Below, one piece after another: positions 4,067 to 64,000 of a stretch of DNA of 64,000 bases. The DNA comes from Candidatus Poribacteria bacterium (GTDB taxonomy: Bacteria > Poribacteria > WGA-4E > B28-G17): positions 3,064-67,063 of the forward strand of contig JAGGXZ010000185.1 of NCBI GenBank assembly GCA_021162805.1, given 5' to 3'. Below the pieces are notes generated by a model. The model made no database searches. It saw only the letters and a program-made list of their open reading frames with translations, and was not told where the DNA came from. Within the stretch, counting starts at the first letter, position 1. Each line of letters starts with the position of its first letter. A program made the translations under genes and the position numbers.

Positions 4067-4103
4067 CAATTTTAAGCCCGATGCAACTGTCAAAACTGTG
4101 ATA

Positions 4104-4178
4104 TGGTCATTTGTGGTCATTGGGTCATTTGGCTTCGCCGTCATTTCGAATGACTACAAATGACTATAAATGACAACA
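4104..4178. promoter_or_regulatory. Array of about 7 GTCATTT/AAATGAC heptamer half-sites (three direct, one palindromic GTCATTTCGAATGAC, three inverted)
   Basis: tggtcatttg tggtcatt gggtcattt ... gtcatttcgaatgac tacaaatgac tataaatgac; lies between divergent sigma-54 activator and secreted-protein gene. Confidence 0.4.
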
Positions 4179-4206
4179 AATAACCATCCGCCGAAGGAGG
4201 AGGAAA

Positions 4207-10533: not shown

Positions 10534-11289
10534 GTGAAGATGATAACCAAGGCGGTCCTGACCGTCTCTGAATCAAAGAGGCTCATCGCCAAAGGCGTCG
10601 CTGCTCTGCCTTCGGTAAAAAGGGCGATGCGTAAAGGGATAATCGCCATCGGAAGGGGAACGACAAACGGATACGTGGTCGAGGAGATCCTGGGAACGAA
10701 GATCGAAAAACATCGCATGATAGCTGGCACAACCACCCCGGCCAAGGGCGAAAAACCGGCAGTGCTCTCCGAGCCGAAGATATCGGGATACGTCATCAAG
10801 GACGGGAAACCCGTCGAAGAGCTCGATCCGGCGACGGCCGTTAAAGAGCTGATGGGTCCGGGAGATGTCTTTATCAAAGGCGCAAATGCCCTAGACTATA
10901 AAAACAAGGTCGCCGGGATATTGATCCTTCATCCCACAGGCGGAACCATCGGGAACGCCATCGGCCATATCATCGCTCGGAGGATCGAACTGGTCATCCC
11001 TGTAGGGCTCGAGAAGCTGGTTTACGAGGATATACACAGGCTCAGCAGGATGGCCTCCAACCCTCAGACCGTGGGAAAGGTTCCAGCCCTTTTCCCTGTG
11101 AGCGGCACGATCGTCACCGAGATAGAGGCGCTTGAGATCTTGTGCGGTGTAAAGGCGACCCTTTACGCCGCGGGCGGAATAGCAGGAGCTGAAGGAGGAG
11201 TTTGGTTGCTGCTGGAGGGGACGGAGGAGGAGCTCGATAACGCCATGAAGCTGATCGAATCCGCTCAGGGCGAACCGCCCTTTGTATGA
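10534..11289 (+). CDS. Hypothetical protein (251 aa)
   Basis: ORF with GTG/ATG start after RBS ggaggtga; no family assignable by eye. Confidence 0.4.
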   Translation: MKMITKAVLTVSESKRLIAKGVAALPSVKRAMRKGIIAIGRGTTNGYVVEEILGTKIEKHRMIAGTTTPAKGEKPAVLSEPKISGYVIKDGKPVEELDPATAVKELMGPGDVFIKGANALDYKNKVAGILILHPTGGTIGNAIGHIIARRIELVIPVGLEKLVYEDIHRLSRMASNPQTVGKVPALFPVSGTIVTEIEALEILCGVKATLYAAGGIAGAEGGVWLLLEGTEEELDNAMKLIESAQGEPPFV

Positions 11290-11320: not shown

Positions 11321-11351
11321 CGTAGCGCAGGCGTAAAGCCTGCGGCTACGG
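11321..11351. repeat. REP-like palindrome CGTAGCGCAGGCGTAAAGCCTGCGGCTACGG between convergent genes
   Basis: 12-bp stem hairpin; 18-mer TAAAGCCTGCGGCTACGG recurs at 61460..61484. Confidence 0.3.
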
Positions 11352-12190: not shown

Positions 12191-12928
12191 TTATCCCTTG
12201 GGTTCAATCGGTTCAAGCGGTTTGACGTTTCCGAAGGTGATCTTTTCAATGCCTGAGGGGGCGGCCCAACGGACGGCGTTGGCGATGACCTTCAGCACAT
12301 CCGGATGATGGTATATCGGATAGGTCTCATGTTCGGGACGGAAATAGAAGATCTTGCCCTTGCCCCTGTAGAAACAGCAGCCGCTACGGAACACCTCGCC
12401 TCCCTCGAACCAGCTTATGAAGACGAGCTCATCCGGCTGGGGTATATCAAACCGCTCGCCGTACATCTCGGCATGCTCGATCTCGATGTATTCGCCCAAC
12501 CCCTCGGCTATCGGATGGCCCGGCTCAACCACCCAGAGCCTCTCCTTTTCGCCGATCTCACGCCATTTGAGGTTGCACGTCGTTCCCATCAGCCTCCGGA
12601 AGATCTTGGAGAAATGGGCCGAATGCAGGACGATCAGCCCCATTCCGTTCAGCACACTCCCATGGACCTTATCCACCACCTCGTCACGAACCTCATGATG
12701 GGCCATATGTCCCCACCAGATGAGCACGTCGGTGTTTGCAAGCACCTCATCGGTTAGCCCGTGCTCCGGTTCATCCAGGGTCGCCGTTCTGACCTCGAAA
12801 CCGGGCTGAGAGCGGAGATAGGAGGCGATCGCCTCGTGCATGCCGTTAGGGTATATCTTCGCTATCCTCTCGTTTCTCCTCTCATGACGGAATTCGTTCC
12901 ACACCGTCACGCGGATCGCTTTTGCCAT
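12191..12928 (-). CDS. ThuA-family (trehalose-utilisation-like, class-I glutamine-amidotransferase-like) protein
   Basis: [16 protein letters not shown] ... ThuA-like; start chosen at ATG preceded by GGAGGAG RBS. Confidence 0.6.
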
Positions 12929-13183
12929 ATCAACTCCTCCGATCAAGAGCTTGGCTTATTATAACTCACCATCACCTTGCTGTAAAGTAATCGCGAGTTG
13001 AAATAGGGGTTTTCAGCGTTTTTCGCCGGCGCTGTAGTAGCGGTCCCCCGTGCCTGCCGGATTCGGAGGCACGCCCAGGGGAACGTCCTTACCACGCCTG
13101 ATTATGCCAAATCATTGAAAAGCCCTAGAGTTGAAGCGGGATTTATGTATGATGGTATTAAACCTGTATAGTGTTTCGAAAGC

Positions 13184-13212
13184 TTGACATATGGGAGATA
13201 TAGTGGTATATT
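13184..13212 (+). promoter_or_regulatory. Strong sigma-70-type promoter TTGACA-17-TATATT
   Basis: Consensus -35, 17 bp spacer, near-consensus -10, about 25 bp upstream of SD gaggtg and ATG at 13235. Confidence 0.5.
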
Positions 13213-13234
13213 ATTTGCAAACGGATATGAGGTG

Positions 13235-13969
13235 ATGGTGTTGAAAAAGTCAGCCGTAACCTCAACTTTCATACTGGTCTCGCTCCTGATTCTATTTCCG
13301 GTGTTGGGTTTTGCTCGTAGCTCTCCCTCCTCCGACGAGAAGGCGGGTAATCCGTTCATCTATCGGGCGAGAATGGTGGATATCGCCCCCGTGGTGGACG
13401 GCGTGCTCGACGATCCCGCATGGAAAGAAGCCGAAGAGGGAGAACTCGACTGGAACGCTACCGAGAGCAAACCCTGGAGAGAAAACGGGGATTTCAGAGG
13501 GAAATTCAAGGTCGTGTGGAAAGGAGGCACGTTGTATATAGCGCTAACTTTTGAGGATGATAGGGTTGAGATCGCAAGCGTTGATCTTTCCAAAAGGGAT
13601 AGCGTCGAGATCTATATAGATATGGATCGTTATGCCCGGAAAAGCCACGTTAACCGGTATACCGTGCCGTTCGGTGAAAGCAAACCGTTCGATAATATAG
13701 ATAGATTATACTCGGTGTGGAGTAACGACGGGACGGCCTTTGAGGCGAGCTTCACGCTCGACCGACCACCAACCCTGGGTGCGGTTATCGGCTTTGATAT
13801 ATGCTATAACGATGTGGACGGGGACAACAGAAAGCAGATCCGATGGACGGATGATCGATTGAACTATTCTCAGAAGCCGATGTTGGGCGATTTGGTCTTC
13901 GAAGGAATGGGCAGTCGAATCAACAAAAAGATGTCCACTACCTGGGGAAGGATCAAGAGCCTTTATTAA
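13235..13969 (+). CDS. Secreted carbohydrate-binding (CBM9/DOMON-like) protein with C-terminal TTWGRIK motif
   Basis: Signal peptide MVLKKSAVTSTFILVSLLILFPVLGFA; DGVLDDPAWKEA motif typical of CBM9-like modules; C-terminus MSTTWGRIKSLY. Confidence 0.55.
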   Translation: MVLKKSAVTSTFILVSLLILFPVLGFARSSPSSDEKAGNPFIYRARMVDIAPVVDGVLDDPAWKEAEEGELDWNATESKPWRENGDFRGKFKVVWKGGTLYIALTFEDDRVEIASVDLSKRDSVEIYIDMDRYARKSHVNRYTVPFGESKPFDNIDRLYSVWSNDGTAFEASFTLDRPPTLGAVIGFDICYNDVDGDNRKQIRWTDDRLNYSQKPMLGDLVFEGMGSRINKKMSTTWGRIKSLY

Positions 13970-40526: not shown

Positions 40527-40641
40527 TTCAACCTACCTCCTCGCTTAAATCTCCGATATCAACATCAATTTCTATTTACGAACTTCACGTTCGACCGGTT
40601 GACCATACCTTTAGAATACGCTCATATTATCGCTAAGTTAA

Positions 40642-40870
40642 GTGTAGCAGAGATCTGAGAGGTCAGAAGTGCTTATTTCTCAGGGCAAAAAGGAACAAGG
40701 AACTAGGAGCGAGGAACGAGGATTTTCATCTCCTCGTTCCTAGTTCCTTTCTCCTCGTTCCTCCTCATGGATAACCGCTACACCCAGGGAAATAAGAGCG
40801 AATTGCTTAACTCTCACTTACGCCCTACGCAGTACGTCTCTTTCCTCTCCTTGTCACCCTGTCTCCCCTA
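40642..40870. repeat. Modular intergenic repeat copy A (GTGTAGCAGAGATCTGAGAGGTCAGAA ... imperfect hairpin GGAACTAGGAGCGAGGAACGAGGA/TCCTCGTTCCTAGTTCC ... CTCCTCGTTCCTCCTCATGGATAACCGCTACAC ... CT-rich tail GTCTCTTTCCTCTCCTTGTCACCCTGTCTCCCC)
   Basis: Blocks of 25-35 nt identical to copy at 56185..56377; lies between hsp20 3' end and htrA 5' end. Confidence 0.45.
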
Positions 40871-56117: not shown

Positions 56118-56184
56118 AATATGACAAGGGGACGGGGAGAGGGGGAGACCAGGGGAATTCTCCCTCGCTCATAATTATCGTTAA

Positions 56185-56377
56185 GTGTAGCAGAGATCTG
56201 AGAGGTCAGAAAACGTTACAACGTTAAACGTTGAACGTGCAACGGATTCCCCTTCTCCTCGTTCCTCCTCATAGATAACCGTATACGTCTCTTTCCTCTC
56301 CTTGTCCCCTTGTCTCCTTGTCACCCTGTCTCCCCTGTTTCCTGCCTCCTGTCTCCTATCGGTGATAACCGCTACAC
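56185..56377. repeat. Modular intergenic repeat copy B (shares GTGTAGCAGAGATCTGAGAGGTCAGAA, CTCCTCGTTCCTCCTCAT-GATAACCG, GTCTCTTTCCTCTCCTTGTC..TGTCTCC and terminal GATAACCGCTACAC with copy A; unique AACGTT x4 insert)
   Basis: Direct comparison with 40642..40870; between convergent gene ends. Confidence 0.45.
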
Positions 56378-56415
56378 TCAAAGGGAATTTGAACGCAATG
56401 ATAATATGGGCGATT

Positions 56416-61133: not shown

Positions 61134-61206
61134 AAGCGGGCAACGGGATTCGAACCCGCGACCCTCAGCTTGGGAAGCTGACGCTCTACCACTGAGCTAT
61201 GCCCGC
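61134..61206 (-). tRNA. tRNA-Gly (anticodon CCC)
   Basis: Cloverleaf folds by hand: acceptor GCGGGCA/TGCCCGC, D-stem GCTC/GAGC, anticodon stem TCAGC/GCTGA with loop TTCCCAA, T-arm GCGGG-TTCGAAT-CCCGT; no encoded CCA. Confidence 0.8.
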
Positions 61207-61228: not shown

Positions 61229-61258
61229 ATTATACTAGACCCCCCAATAGGTGTCAAG
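61229..61258 (-). promoter_or_regulatory. Sigma-70-type promoter for tRNA-Gly (TTGACA-18-TATAAT on minus strand)
   Basis: Read from reverse complement; -10 ends about 22 nt before mature tRNA 5' end. Confidence 0.4.
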
Positions 61259-61373
61259 TGAACATCTGAGGGCAGGGCTTTTCAATGATTGTATGATTTA
61301 GTATACCATCACAGAAGCCACCAGAAAACGAGGTGATTCAGGTGACAAACCAAGACCTGCTTCATGGGGGATT

Positions 61374-61915
61374 GTGATTGGACGCAAGACTCCAGACACA
61401 AGATTCCAGAGAGGTGAGGAATCATTGAAGCAGCCGCACCCTTTAGGGTGCGTTAAATCGCAGGCTAAAGCCTGCGGCTACGGGGATTGCGCTAAAGCGT
61501 TGAAAACCCCTAGATGCGGGGCATGGAAGATGAAAAATCTGATCCAATCATGGCAAAACTACCTTCTCACACAGGGGGATTGGGAAGTCAGGAGGTATGG
61601 CGGATACACACCCCCGGCTGCCGATATAACAGCATTCTTCAGGCCAAAGCTGAAAGGGAAGATAGGCAAGTTCTTCCATCACATAGCAAACAAAGCCATG
61701 AGGGGGATAGGAATTGGCCTTATTGTGATGGTGGTAGAGGTTGAAGGGAGGAGGATACCTCTCATCAGAGAGATACTGCCTGCAGAAGGTGATATGAGCC
61801 AGGCTCAGCTGAAGGAGAAGCTTCTCACTTTGGTCTCATCCTCAGAACTTTGTTGTGTTTGGACACCTTGCTGTTACCTCCTTGAAGTTGCCACGCCGAG
61901 CATGTGCTGTGGTTG
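61374..61915 (+). CDS. Hypothetical ORF inside element, beginning within the left inverted repeat (possible remnant of a transposition protein)
   Basis: Only the non-overlapping 5' part of track ORF 61374..62063; no family recognised. Confidence 0.2.
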
Positions 61916-63244
61916 TTATTCGCCGGTGGATAATCGCCACAGCAGCAGGGAACAAGGGCCTGGGTCTTGCTGCAACTTCTCCGGGTTGTATACATCGGAC
62001 ATCACGTACATCACGCCGGGCACTGTTACCGAACCCTGGCACGGATTGGGTGTCATCACATAACTGCTTGCCTGGTAGCCAAGTTCCAGCGGGTCCATCC
62101 CTGCAACCGGTTCAGCAACCACTTTCTCGCCCCCCAGGATGTCCCCCTCCCAGGCCTGAAGCTTGCCCATTGAGGGATTGTTTATGAACACCGAGCGCGT
62201 GGGGGAGATGTACTGCCACTTGCCGGCGTTGCTGTACCCCCTGGCAGTCGGCACCTCGTTTACCAGCCTCAGCTTGCGGGTTGTAAGATCATATACCAGG
62301 AAATCATGGCGCCACGGGCCATCCTTGGGGGACATGTTGTGGTAGATGAGGAGGTGTTGCCAGTCCCCCGGCCGCACCGGGCGCATATCATATGACAGAT
62401 AACGCCCATCCACTGCATCAGCCGGTAGTTCCTCTTCATGCAATATATTGCCCTGCCAGTCCAAGTGTATCAGCCGGCTTGTCGCGTGTTCGTGCACATC
62501 CCACACGTTGCCTACCACCACTACCCCGGCCTCGGTCGCGGCAACCAGGGGATAGAAGAAGGCGAACGGCTCATGGTACTTGATCGGTTTGTCGAAGCGA
62601 AAGTCTAGCCCCTGCCGGTGTCCGTAGAAGATAAGCGGCGTATTGAACGGAACGCTGCCGTCTTCCGATATCGCCAGGATGACGAGAGCTGCCCGCTGTC
62701 CATCGGCTGTCACCGCTGCATTCATGCGCAGGTGAAACTGGTTGTACGGCGGCACTTGGGGGATTAACTCGGTCCGCTCGACCCACTCAGTCACGTCCTC
62801 GGGCCGGGCGCTGCGATAGTACCGCAGCGTCCCGTACCCATAGCGCGGATTGTCTGTGTGGTGGTTGATGCCCAAAATAACATGCAAGTACCCGTCGGGC
62901 GTGCGCATCAACAGCGGCTCGTTTCCCCCGTACGCCCCCGGTTCCTTAATGGAGAACGCATGTACTGCCGGTACACCGTCCGTACCCGGCAGGGGAAATT
63001 GTCCTACCAGTTGAGTAAGAAATCTCTTTTCGCCGTTATCGGCTGTTTCCCACTCGTTGAGGGTGGCAGCCCAGAAAACATGCCGCTGGCCTTGCAGTAC
63101 GTAGCTGAACGTATGCCCGCCCCACTGGGATGCCACGTTGGAGTGCAGTACAACTGGCCCTCCGACGCACCTTACCTGCGCGCTTACCCCTTCAAGCAAG
63201 GCGAATAAGAGGAACGCCATGAAAAGGCAGGTTTGAATTTTCAT
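61916..63244 (-). CDS. Secreted hypothetical protein (442 aa) carried as cargo inside the inverted-repeat-bounded element
   Basis: Signal peptide MKIQTCLFMAFLLFALLEGVSAQ; long clean ORF. Confidence 0.55.
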   Translation of the reverse strand: MKIQTCLFMAFLLFALLEGVSAQVRCVGGPVVLHSNVASQWGGHTFSYVLQGQRHVFWAATLNEWETADNGEKRFLTQLVGQFPLPGTDGVPAVHAFSIKEPGAYGGNEPLLMRTPDGYLHVILGINHHTDNPRYGYGTLRYYRSARPEDVTEWVERTELIPQVPPYNQFHLRMNAAVTADGQRAALVILAISEDGSVPFNTPLIFYGHRQGLDFRFDKPIKYHEPFAFFYPLVAATEAGVVVVGNVWDVHEHATSRLIHLDWQGNILHEEELPADAVDGRYLSYDMRPVRPGDWQHLLIYHNMSPKDGPWRHDFLVYDLTTRKLRLVNEVPTARGYSNAGKWQYISPTRSVFINNPSMGKLQAWEGDILGGEKVVAEPVAGMDPLELGYQASSYVMTPNPCQGSVTVPGVMYVMSDVYNPEKLQQDPGPCSLLLWRLSTGE

Positions 63245-63838
63245 ATCGATTCACCCCCTCTTTATGTGCTGTCAGATATTTTTTCATCGGCGCAATTATA
63301 CAACAAAAGTTGGTTCTTCGCCATAAATTGTGATAAAAGGTCAAGCTTGAAAAGCAACTGGGAACCGCCTATACTCTCTTTAGGTTGCAAAACCACGAGA
63401 GGAGGCGAGTTCCCAGATGCGAAACAATTGTATCACAATTTCGCTTGATTTGCGACAGGCCTATGGGTATCGTGACTTTGAGCATTTCCGACTCCGAATC
63501 CTGACCCTGGCAGCGTAAGCCATCTCAGTGCACACTTGAGACTCGGCCTAGGTCATATCTCCCCTATGATGCGGATCTTGGCCGGCATCAGACACAAGAC
63601 CCTAGACTCAAGATTCTCACAACCAACTTCTAACCTCTGGGTCTTGATTCGTCATACCAATCTGGAGTCTTGTGTTCAGAGTCTTGTATCTGATCGCAAT
63701 CCCCCATGAAGCGGGTCTTGGTTTGTCACCTGAATCACCTCGCTTCCTGATTGAAAAGCCCTACTACAAATCCTTGACGGTGTGAGGAAGGCTGTGTTAA
63801 GATTAGTGGCGGAAAAATTTCGTCTCGGCGGTGTCAAC

Positions 63839-64000
63839 ATGTCCGAACTCAGATGGCATCCGATTCTCGAGGAATGGGTGATCGTCTCAACTCATAGGCA
63901 GAAACGCACCTTTATGCCGCGTAGGGAGGAATGTCCCCTTTGCCCAGGAGGGGTGGAGATACCTGATGATTTCGACATCGTGGTCTTTGAAAACCGGTTT
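63839..64000 (+). CDS. galT: Galactose-1-phosphate uridylyltransferase (HIT-type), N-terminal fragment running off window
   Basis: MSELRWHPILEEWVIVSTHRQKRTF...CPLCPG...FDIVVFENRF matches GalT N-terminus. Confidence 0.55.
   Translation, partial: MSELRWHPILEEWVIVSTHRQKRTFMPRREECPLCPGGVEIPDDFDIVVFENRF

Follow-up and report, generated by a model that had tools for sequence, protein, structure and literature searches.

A probable patchwork of decayed mobile-element pieces, with a new small MITE-like repeat family, between tRNA-Gly and galT in an uncultivated Poribacteria lineage

MITE-flanked integron mobilization units are an example of the composite type of mobile DNA. Bacterial MITEs themselves measure about 50–600 bp, have terminal inverted repeats (TIRs) and target-site duplications (TSDs), and are mobilized by a co-resident parent insertion sequence (IS) (PMC6382973); a copy of one of them, MITEAba12, is contained in Tn6645 (PMC6382973). 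Here these and other described systems are compared with a region of a 64,000-nucleotide stretch of Candidatus Poribacteria DNA (the window). A preliminary description had read positions 61274–63762 as one element of about 2.5 kb with long imperfect inverted repeats, carrying a secreted protein and no transposase. We favor a different account, to which we give a probability of about 60%: the region would consist of decayed mobile-element pieces, set like a patchwork about a normal host gene, and would not be one transposon (Table 1).

The block does lie where it had been placed, between the tRNA-Gly promoter and galT, and promoter sites were located on both sides. The galT start is at 63839, in the same reading frame as in locus L014. 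Gene calling over the 10 kb left of the gene for the 442-aa protein, and over the 4.5 kb by which the contig extends to its right, gave galT, galK, NHL, TPR, WD40 and metallo-beta-lactamase genes, and Rfam searches at gathering and E-value thresholds returned the tRNA only. This Poribacteria population is represented in samples JGI 3300016457, ERZ23499514 and SRR14000035.

Table 1. Positions in the window of the features discussed in the text.
Feature	Position	Strand	Evidence or remarks
Clean 124/125-bp M copy (M1)	13003–13127	minus	8-bp direct repeat GAGTTGAA at 12995–13002 and 13128–13135
tRNA-Gly(CCC)	61135–61206	minus	ARAGORN; Rfam 75.3 bits; left neighbor of the block
tRNA-Gly promoter, TTGACA-17-TATAAT	61257–61229 (61229..61257)	minus	12/12 consensus positions
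Complete 238-bp M copy (M2)	61274–61511	plus	L terminus AGGGCTTTTCAATGATTGTATGAT on the left, R terminus GGGGATTGCGCTAAAGCGTTGAAAACCCCT(A) on the right
Left arm of long inverted repeat	61320–61428	plus	inside M2; holds the 45-nt core 61330–61374 and a 14-nt tandem unit 61381–61410
Two REP-like hairpins, GCACCCTTTAGGGTGC and GCAGGCTAAAGCCTGCGGCTAC	61430–61483	plus	inside M2; fold z = −4.6
IS701/IS4-like DDE transposase pseudogene fragment	61512–61843	plus	roughly residues 68–178 of a ~430-aa protein
442-aa secreted protein, predicted beta-propeller	61916–63244	minus	predicted glycoside-hydrolase or polysaccharide-lyase-like fold
Inner right end	63558–63697		partial direct core copy at ~63558–63585 and imperfect CAAGAC-type hairpin 63586–63620 / 63660–63697
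Right arm of long inverted repeat	63643–63749	minus	inverted-repeat, blastn and nhmmer comparisons
Second L-type M terminus, TAGGGCTTTTCAAT	63750–63763	minus	joined directly to the right arm
galT promoter-like site, TTGACG-18-TAAGAT	63774–63803	plus	TG before the second hexamer

The tips of the block belong to a new small MITE-like repeat family of this uncultivated Poribacteria lineage, here called M, whose termini consist of a T followed by AGGG(C/G)TTTTCA. Without the T, the exact motif is present at five places in the window (13005+, 13126−, 61274+, 61511−, 63762−), and a T precedes six of eight M termini when the copies in the window, L005 and L012 are taken together. Sequence forms linked to the family or the locus are the terminus TAGGGCTTTTCAATGAT and also GCGTTGAAAACCCCTA. 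The terminal inverted repeat is 12–14 nt long, and TAGGG(C/G)TTTTCA(A/G)(T/C)G was found at both ends of M1 (124 bp), M2 (238 bp) and a 54-bp copy in locus L005, all of them non-coding and of MITE size. The M2 termini align with those of M1 (13003–13127) and the L005 copy, so that these three have both termini in common and different interiors; homologous coding sequence begins only at 61512, outside M2. M1 is the only copy with a clean TSD; its 8-bp direct repeat is perfect, and the two repeat copies flank M1 with an offset of 1 nt. No TSD was found around M2 or the L005 copy, which fits later rearrangement. Both outer tips of the 2.5-kb block are L-type, a T followed by AGGGCTTTTCAAT, and no R-type partner was recognizable for the right one.

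Three to four distinct M copies are present in about 300 kb of sequence, in which no autonomous or parent element ending in M termini turned up. The Logan contigs L024 and L025, which stem from separate runs, both begin 30 nt, exactly k−1, inside the R terminus of M1, as expected if this terminus is repeated in the sample. The M1 locus shows four different upstream neighbors in four strain groups; a search for its precise empty site yielded none, the candidate L028 not aligning past the junction. At both loci examined, gene order changes between strains or relatives at the points where M copies lie. We infer that M is or formerly was mobile in trans, presumably moved by a transposase encoded elsewhere. 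An origin of M from ISL3, which the 8-bp TSD and GGCT-type tips would presumably bring to mind, is not claimed here. Two other readings of the tips were rejected: ATTGAAAAGCCCT as a regulatory site upstream of promoters, given that it lies at no fixed distance from the −35 hexamer (11, 16 and 57 nt) and that it is one TIR arm of a small element, and AGGGCTTTTCAAT as the end of an IS701-like element, the full copy of which in L006 has different TIRs. The paired REP-like hairpins inside M2 match each other in inverted orientation, and the second recurs at 11326–11351 of the window with 96% identity over 26 nt. Several other small repeats were noticed in the wider window and related loci, along with a further two IS types, found in L007 and L028, several further local inverted arrays of short units in the genome, and a spacer upstream of ThuA whose neighbors differ between loci.

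Sequence comparison identifies the 180-aa ORF, to which the preliminary description had assigned no function, as a dead IS701/IS4-like DDE transposase fragment. Protein P0097 matches it at 101 of 105 residues (96% over 105 aa) and then runs on to 323 aa, the window fragment departing from it after residue 105. In DNA, the span 61512–61843 is 97% identical to L005, 92% to L013 and 91% to L006, with exactly the same limits each time, and the mechanically called ORF (61374–62063) extends past it by chance. A full-length relative of 428 aa in L006 lies within a 1486-bp IS with 21-nt TIRs; this TIR (ACTCTAGTTTCCGCTAA) has no counterpart in the window when as many as three mismatches are allowed. 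NCBIfam IS701 was matched by 21 of the 23 members of the transposase family (best E = 2.7e-14), and their alignment shows conserved D, D and DRWxVE...K, of which the window fragment retains only the first D (AADITAFFRP). Scans of the 180-aa and 442-aa ORFs against Pfam, NCBIfam and PHROG gave nothing. The block thus has no working transposase, as first described, but it does hold the remains of one. The junction of M with the fragment is the same in L005, where the left context differs; the L005 sample also holds a locus of the window type, L021. The 180-aa ORF belongs in the annotation as a pseudogene, and the comparison documents a divergent IS701/IS4-like family that numbers at least 687 cluster representatives and of which the two members scanned had no Pfam hit.

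The 442-aa protein, which could have been a recombinase, is not one. The predicted signal peptide was borne out by a hydrophobic N-terminal helix at residues 2–18, and the AlphaFold2 model (pLDDT 93) is a beta-propeller with a carbohydrate-enzyme fold, for which the best Foldseek matches were BT3686-type glycoside hydrolases, sialidases and PL24 lyases; the family profile matched ulvan lyase PL25 with E = 1e-4. Its 95 homologs come from Poribacteria, Armatimonadota, Hydrogenedentes, Planctomycetota and Verrucomicrobiae, and the closest (65%) sits in a tandem paralog array without such repeats. The GC content of the gene is about 2 SD above the window mean but its GC3 is host-like, and foreign composition was set aside as not informative. 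This is a widespread and ordinary host gene family, for which models are still lacking, and the annotation that suits the protein is that of a beta-propeller enzyme whose fold is like those of glycoside hydrolases or lyases.

In the patchwork reading, M would be present twice in the block in opposite orientation, complete as M2 on the left (61274–61511) and as an L-terminus half on the right (~63560–63763). Both copies would represent a long variant with about 105 nt of interior sequence, which forms the inverted-repeat arms; these are 85% alike and contain slippage-prone short units of the CAAGAC type. An unrelated dead IS701/IS4-like fragment, joined directly to the inner terminus of M2, and the beta-propeller gene lie between the two. 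Recombination or deletion at M copies may have given rise to the left junction at 61274 and to the junction of M2 with the transposase fragment at 61511/61512. The block probably has no present function as a unit, other than spacing two outward-facing promoters. The long variant would be known from two copies, their arm sequence having been found at this locus alone. Two intact inverted L termini could in principle be used together by a transposase. In the patchwork reading the region is ordinary mobile-element debris, of little significance beyond annotation.

The inverted repeat itself is real, with arms of 94 nt (61322–61415 / 63656–63749) that are 85% complementary (blastn E = 2.5e-23) and that nhmmer lengthens to ~61320–61424 and 63645–63753. 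A 45-nt core (GAGGTGATTCAGGTGACAAACCAAGACCYGCTTCATGGGGGATTG) has a single mismatch, as had been reported, but its left copy is at 61330–61374, since 61341–61385 compared with 63697–63741 gives 33 mismatches. The outermost perfect pair is the 13-nt AGGGCTTTTCAAT / ATTGAAAAGCCCT at 61274–61286 and 63750–63762. The GTCTTG-type subterminal motifs are strongly clustered at both ends, 10 of the 34 RRTCTTG/CAAGAYY sites of the whole window lying within 61351–61405 and 63574–63720. The right end is more than a simple arm, and also includes a local hairpin (DNA fold z = −2.7; nhmmer self-inverted match 63583–63696) and part of the arm core, copied in direct orientation. This partial copy, noticed by eye, is the better explanation for a weak likeness of CCCCTATGATGCGG (63560) to the M2/transposase junction CCCCTAGATGCGG. 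Strains vary in the right arm, L012 by a 14-nt unit and L003 by a deletion of 17 nt, and constraint on it is therefore weak. A 21-nt core scan of 185,579 species-representative genomes returned one match, this locus itself, and nhmmer recovered no further arm copies from loci L001–L021; extra copies of the terminal core, as might be looked for in a mobile element, thus did not turn up in either set.

The alternative that survives best, though we regard it as unlikely, is that the arms are not copies of a mobile element, and that a segment of about 120 bp, by chance including an M terminus, was duplicated once in inverted orientation, through template switching or recombination as the region was rearranged at a synteny breakpoint. 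In its favor are an arm restricted to this locus, a locus that is a rearrangement breakpoint both in relatives and between strains, and several other local inverted short-unit arrays in the genome that look like such products. However, the duplicated segment would need to stop at precisely the M terminus on either side, and the copy on the left is embedded in an M element that is canonical apart from 35 additional nt following the terminus. The 15% divergence and the intact outer 13-mers fit two old element copies equally well.

Comparisons with strains and relatives bear on a second alternative, in which 61274–63762 is a mobilizable composite with inverted long-M ends and RRTCTTG subterminal binding sites, moved as a whole 2.5 kb by a transposase acting in trans. 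In L012 the sequence is 98% identical to the window from 61274 to the window end, including the galT flank, and unrelated to the left of 61274 (CCCAACCT); this left flank could be an assembly chimera. Like L012, the Logan contig L004 breaks at ~61274–61277, as if the tip acted as a real boundary. The tRNA-Gly is conserved in all relatives and its promoter is kept in L015, L016 and L017, whose homology to the window ends at ~61258–61262. At the tRNA-Gly loci of four relatives (76–88% identity), the DNA beyond the promoter is unrelated, with no galT and no arm, and the site is therefore a synteny breakpoint. This absence of the block would suit a composite, as would two inverted L-type termini with some 105 nt of related sequence behind each, a TSD of the M family elsewhere, by which a cognate transposase probably exists or existed, and the raised GC of the cargo gene.

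Nevertheless, a composite is improbable. No direct repeat surrounds the block in the window or in L012, and the 8-mers next to it, CTGAGGGC or TCTGAGGG at the left end and CTACAAAT or ACTACAAA at the right, have no counterpart on the opposite side. L012 changes the left flank only, no empty site could be defined at the tRNA-Gly loci of the four relatives, and a second copy of the arm was found nowhere among the collections searched. M2 by itself is already a complete small element, the arms are just 85% alike with strain-specific deletions, and the GC3 of the cargo gene is host-like. What stands of the mobile element first described is that its ends are derived from transposable elements; the evidence is against their having bounded one unit. 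Movement of the block, if demonstrated, would make it a case of a carbohydrate-enzyme gene mobilized between bounding repeats, a possibility that the present evidence disfavors.

Less probable again, and in our view a long shot, is that the ~105-nt RRTCTTG arms are the true ends of an undescribed family of non-autonomous Poribacteria transposons, with the 13-nt M tips, a trans-acting transposase and 8-bp duplications. If this were true, the 2.5-kb block would be a repeat-bounded cassette shuttling a secreted carbohydrate-enzyme gene between loci. A functional role for the inverted repeats, as crossover sites of an invertible segment by which expression of the 442-aa gene is switched or as regulator arrays for the tRNA-Gly and galT promoters, might be suggested by iterated short motifs like operator arrays in arms 25–65 nt upstream of the two outward-facing promoters, yet it is very improbable, with the block collinear and in one orientation in all seven assembled contigs from seven datasets, no recombinase among the genes called on either side of the 442-aa gene (10 kb leftward, and rightward the remaining 4.5 kb of contig), relatives that keep the tRNA-Gly promoter without any arm, motif units removed by strain deletions, and no Rfam match.

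Set beside described systems, the block resembles Tn7-like and Mu-like elements in its long ends with several short iterated sites, a likeness already remarked on, along with the idea of an unfamiliar element type. This idea is not supported, as the tips are (T)AGGG and not TG...CA, the RRTCTTG sites of the right end run in both orientations instead of one, no TSD flanks the block, no other arm locus is known from the searches above, and no TnsABC- or MuAB-type genes occur among those called in the 10 kb left of the 442-aa gene and the 4.5 kb right. The transposase fragment agrees with the IS701/IS4 group (NCBIfam NF049999 and NF033592; Tn5 transposase fold) in belonging to a DDE family of ~430 aa with DRWxVE...K (YREK-like). 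Family scores, by contrast, are far under the NCBIfam cut-offs; these low scores, together with the lack of a Pfam hit for P0097 and the L006 protein, therefore place the family on a divergent branch, and in the window copy the two TIRs, the N-terminus, the second Asp and the Glu are all missing. The hairpins inside M2 recall REP/BIME palindromes, being paired with a GTAG/CTAC-like foot and having a near-identical counterpart after a gene at 11326–11351, but unlike REP sequences they have been seen at two places only.

Composite transposons such as Tn6645 and MITE-flanked units share with the block two inverted terminal copies around a passenger gene and no working transposase inside. The block differs from them in having neither a TSD nor a second context changed on both flanks, and its terminal copies are diverged and truncated, one being a half element. 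M itself can be set beside bacterial MITEs such as MITEAba12 of Acinetobacter (PMC6382973). The M sequence is unrelated to MITEAba12, its TSD is 8 bp and not 9 bp, three to four distinct copies are seen so far, and its mobility is read from one TSD and contig breakpoints, with no parent IS known. Like bacterial MITEs, however, M is small (54–238 bp) and non-coding, has short TIRs and, at one copy, an apparent TSD, lies in intergenic positions beside promoters in several copies with variable interiors, and would move in trans.

A repeat search of the window recovered a long inverted repeat at the ends of the block (61274-63762), with 94-nt arms (61322-61415 and 63656-63749) that are 85% complementary, and an outer pair perfect over 13 nt (61274-61286 and 63750-63762); blastn of the block ends against the window gave E = 2.5e-23. 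This bears out the preliminary description, which had also noted a 45-nt core with a single mismatch. Such a core exists, pairing 61330-61374 with 63697-63741; the left coordinates first assigned were 11 nt off and yield 33 mismatches. Short-motif arrays are likewise present: across the 64 kb of the window there are 34 RRTCTTG/CAAGAYY sites, and 10 of them fall inside the two ends. We consider it probable (about 0.6) that the block comprises two diverged copies of a long variant of a small repeat, here named M, together with REP-like hairpins and the dead remnant of an IS701-like gene, all around a host gene in a rearrangement-prone spacer.

Coordinates of features in and around the block and of the M copies in the window
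Feature	Position	Size	Remarks
M1	13003-13127	124 bp	L and R termini
tRNA-Gly(CCC)	61135-61206		minus strand
tRNA-Gly promoter	61257-61229		minus strand; perfect TTGACA-17-TATAAT
M2	61274-61511	238 bp	L and R termini
14-nt tandem unit	61381-61410		
Two REP-like hairpins	61430-61483		inside M2
Local fold of right end	63586-63620 vs 63660-63697		
Second L terminus	63750-63763		joined directly to right arm
Promoter-like site	63774-63803		ahead of galT

Alignment of M copies showed two terminus types, L (TAGGGCTTTTCAATGAT...) and R (...GCG(C)TAAAGCGTTGAAAACCCCTA), and T precedes six of the eight termini of the copies in the window and in the related loci L005 and L012. The 13-nt tip sequence recurs exactly at 13114-13126, and AGGG[GC]TTTTCA has five exact occurrences in the window (13005 and 61274, plus strand; 13126, 61511 and 63762, minus strand). 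M1 is flanked by an 8-bp direct repeat, GAGTTGAA (12995-13002 and 13128-13135), and two Logan contigs from different runs start 30 nt (k-1) inside its R terminus, the break expected if the M terminus is repeated in the sample. In L005, M is 54 bp long, without the part (window 61298-61482) that holds the left arm. The L terminus at the right tip of the block had no R partner in the alignment. From these sequences M looks to us like a non-autonomous, MITE-like element; the arms would then form the inside of a long variant that is present twice, in inverted orientation. The alternative of a one-off inverted duplication appears unlikely.

GCAGGC(G)TAAAGCCTGCGGCTAC, a REP-like hairpin, is found twice (96% identity over 26 nt): at 11326-11351, after an ORF ending at 11289, and at 61460-61483 in M2. 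The short-read contig L004 (window 61277-63481) has one end near the M2 tip, and L021, also a short-read contig, ends at about 61541, near the M2/transposase junction. These ends fit assembly breaks at repeated sequence; L004 has its other break at about 63481.

The evidence argues against the 2.5-kb block as a mobile unit. The 8-mers next to one tip did not recur at the other. In a search of 185,579 genomes, one per species, the 21-nt arm core had a single match, the same locus in a MAG, and nhmmer found no further arm copies among L001-L021. Between 61274 and the window end, L012, a locus of another metagenome, matches the window at 98% identity, and the genes to its left are unrelated (by reading translations, an ABC transporter-like protein, a putative large glycosyltransferase and a putative secreted HtrA-like protease); because one flank alone differs, this is not whole-block transposition. 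The M/transposase junction (...AAAACCCCT joined to AGATGCGGGGCATGG) is shared with L005, which has yet another left flank and whose source sample also holds a window-type locus (L021), a pattern compatible with M copies having been sites of recombination or deletion. A repeat-bounded composite that is still mobilisable is quite unlikely.

The setting between the tRNA-Gly promoter and galT is as originally described. The identical protein on record for the neighbouring TPR gene carries the organism name Candidatus Poribacteria bacterium. The tRNA gene adjoins this TPR gene in all four relatives (TPR orthologues 88, 83, 70 and 54% identical). Its promoter is kept in the three closer ones, whose homology to the window ends at about 61258-61262, and DNA homology of the 54% relative covers the tRNA gene only. 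Since each relative has different DNA past this point, and the block and galT are missing from all of them beyond tRNA-Gly, the site is a synteny breakpoint, for which no simple empty site can be defined. The spacer holding M1 is likewise variable, with four different neighbours in four strain groups. This spacer (12929-13240; compared with L026, L027, L028 and L031) lies upstream of a ThuA-domain gene (12191-12928) and is occupied by M1 and a CBM9 gene in the window, and elsewhere by a sulfatase, a HEPN/nucleotidyltransferase pair or an intact DDE_5 (IS701-type) insertion sequence (L028 583-2229; 469 aa, 23-nt TIRs).

The ORF at 61374-62063 had no family match in Pfam, NCBIfam or PHROG, and its matches in a 5.8-billion-protein collection were its own sequence and P0097, a transposase-family protein from a related locus. 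The two are identical at 101 of 105 residues from MKNLIQ..., after which P0097 runs on to 323 aa; DNA homology of the window to the loci of P0097 and its relatives is limited to 61512-61843. L006 encodes a full-length relative (428 aa), and the element around it measures 1486 bp and ends in 21-nt terminal inverted repeats, ACTCTAGTTTCCGCTAAATTT. At E ≤ 0.001 the family counts 687 cluster representatives, of which many are fragments. All 23 members of an alignment share the Asp of D-x-T-x-F-x-R-P, and almost all have the Asp in a second conserved block and the R-W in the motif DRWxVE...K. NCBIfam IS701 transposase models matched 21 of the 23 (best E = 2.7e-14, under the curated cut-offs), IS4 models matched 14, and the best solved structure was Tn5 transposase, in the YREK region (E = 0.02). 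The analysis adds this family, a divergent one from an uncultivated phylum. The window fragment retains the first Asp region only and the 21-nt repeats of the L006 element were not found in the window; the 180-aa ORF is what is left of a dead transposase gene, truncated at both ends, from a different element. The block had been described as lacking a transposase; a piece of such a gene is present, albeit truncated and another element's. In L007 (918-1300), a further transposase-like ORF start (MILKDRESIREFLKENG...), presumably resembling IS256-family proteins, lies directly past the right end of an IS701-like element, so that different insertion sequences occur next to, or nested within, one another in these populations.

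At E ≤ 0.001 the 442-aa protein (61916-63244) finds 95 homologues, spread over Poribacteria, Armatimonadota, Hydrogenedentes, Planctomycetota and Verrucomicrobiae, the closest (65% identity) lying in a tandem paralogue array without such repeats. Its AlphaFold2 model (37 sequences; pLDDT 93, pTM 0.91) has an N-terminal helix followed by an all-beta repeat fold. The best Foldseek matches in the PDB were BT3686-type glycoside hydrolases, sialidases, fucose lectins and PL24 lyases (E about 1e-7, TM about 0.55), and the family profile matched ulvan lyase PL25 at E = 1e-4. The protein is not a recombinase and appears to be an ordinary carbohydrate-active enzyme that is secreted. Gene GC is 57.8%, against 52.6 ± 2.5% in same-size windows, with GC3 within the host range. 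Pfam and NCBIfam hold no model for this beta-propeller family, despite about 95 homologues in five phyla, and it may represent an undescribed family of carbohydrate enzymes, with a PL25/GH145-like fold; L020 (8614-12787) carries three tandem paralogues. The stretch upstream of the gene, along with a promoter-like site on the plus strand (63347-63375), lies between the halves of an inverted pair, AAATTGTGATAAAA / TTGTATCACAATTT (63325-63338 and 63428-63441, 89 nt apart), which could be an operator pair.

The GTCTTG-type arrays are alike in style to other short-unit inverted arrays of this genome, at 4104-4181, 40690-40763, 56211-56342 and L005 1-150; in the sole relevant test, an nhmmer search started from both ends of the block, the arms gave no hit to these at E ≤ 1. 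Among strains, the right arm lacks one 14-nt unit in L012 and has lost 17 nt between short direct repeats in L003, which points to weak constraint. The seven contigs of the locus, which come from seven datasets, are collinear, with no sign of inversion of the block. A functional switch or operator array is very improbable.

Several intergenic sites (window 40618-40800 and 56165-56415; L012 5609-5685; L015 10103-10250; L005 1-230) belong to one dispersed repeat family. Its copies share a module at either flank, CGCTCATATTATCGCTAAGT..GTGTAGCAGAGATCTGAGAGGTCAG at one and GATAACCGCTACAC at the other, which enclose arrays of a 7-nt unit that pair as a hairpin, the unit varying by copy (GGAACNA, AAACGTT, CCTTGTC, GGTCNAG). 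Shortly before a gene that starts at about 4208, arrays of TGGTCATTG units give way to inverted AATGACNACA units (4100-4185); 44 nt of this stretch (4102-4145) match L017 2065-2108 at 95% identity, L017 being from a relative whose protein identity is 70%.

Diverged M copies with an insertion sequence remnant around a host gene are an ordinary kind of thing. M itself is a new family of small repeats, found in an uncultivated phylum, its comparison with MITEs being based on the general properties of these elements in bacteria (PMC6382973).
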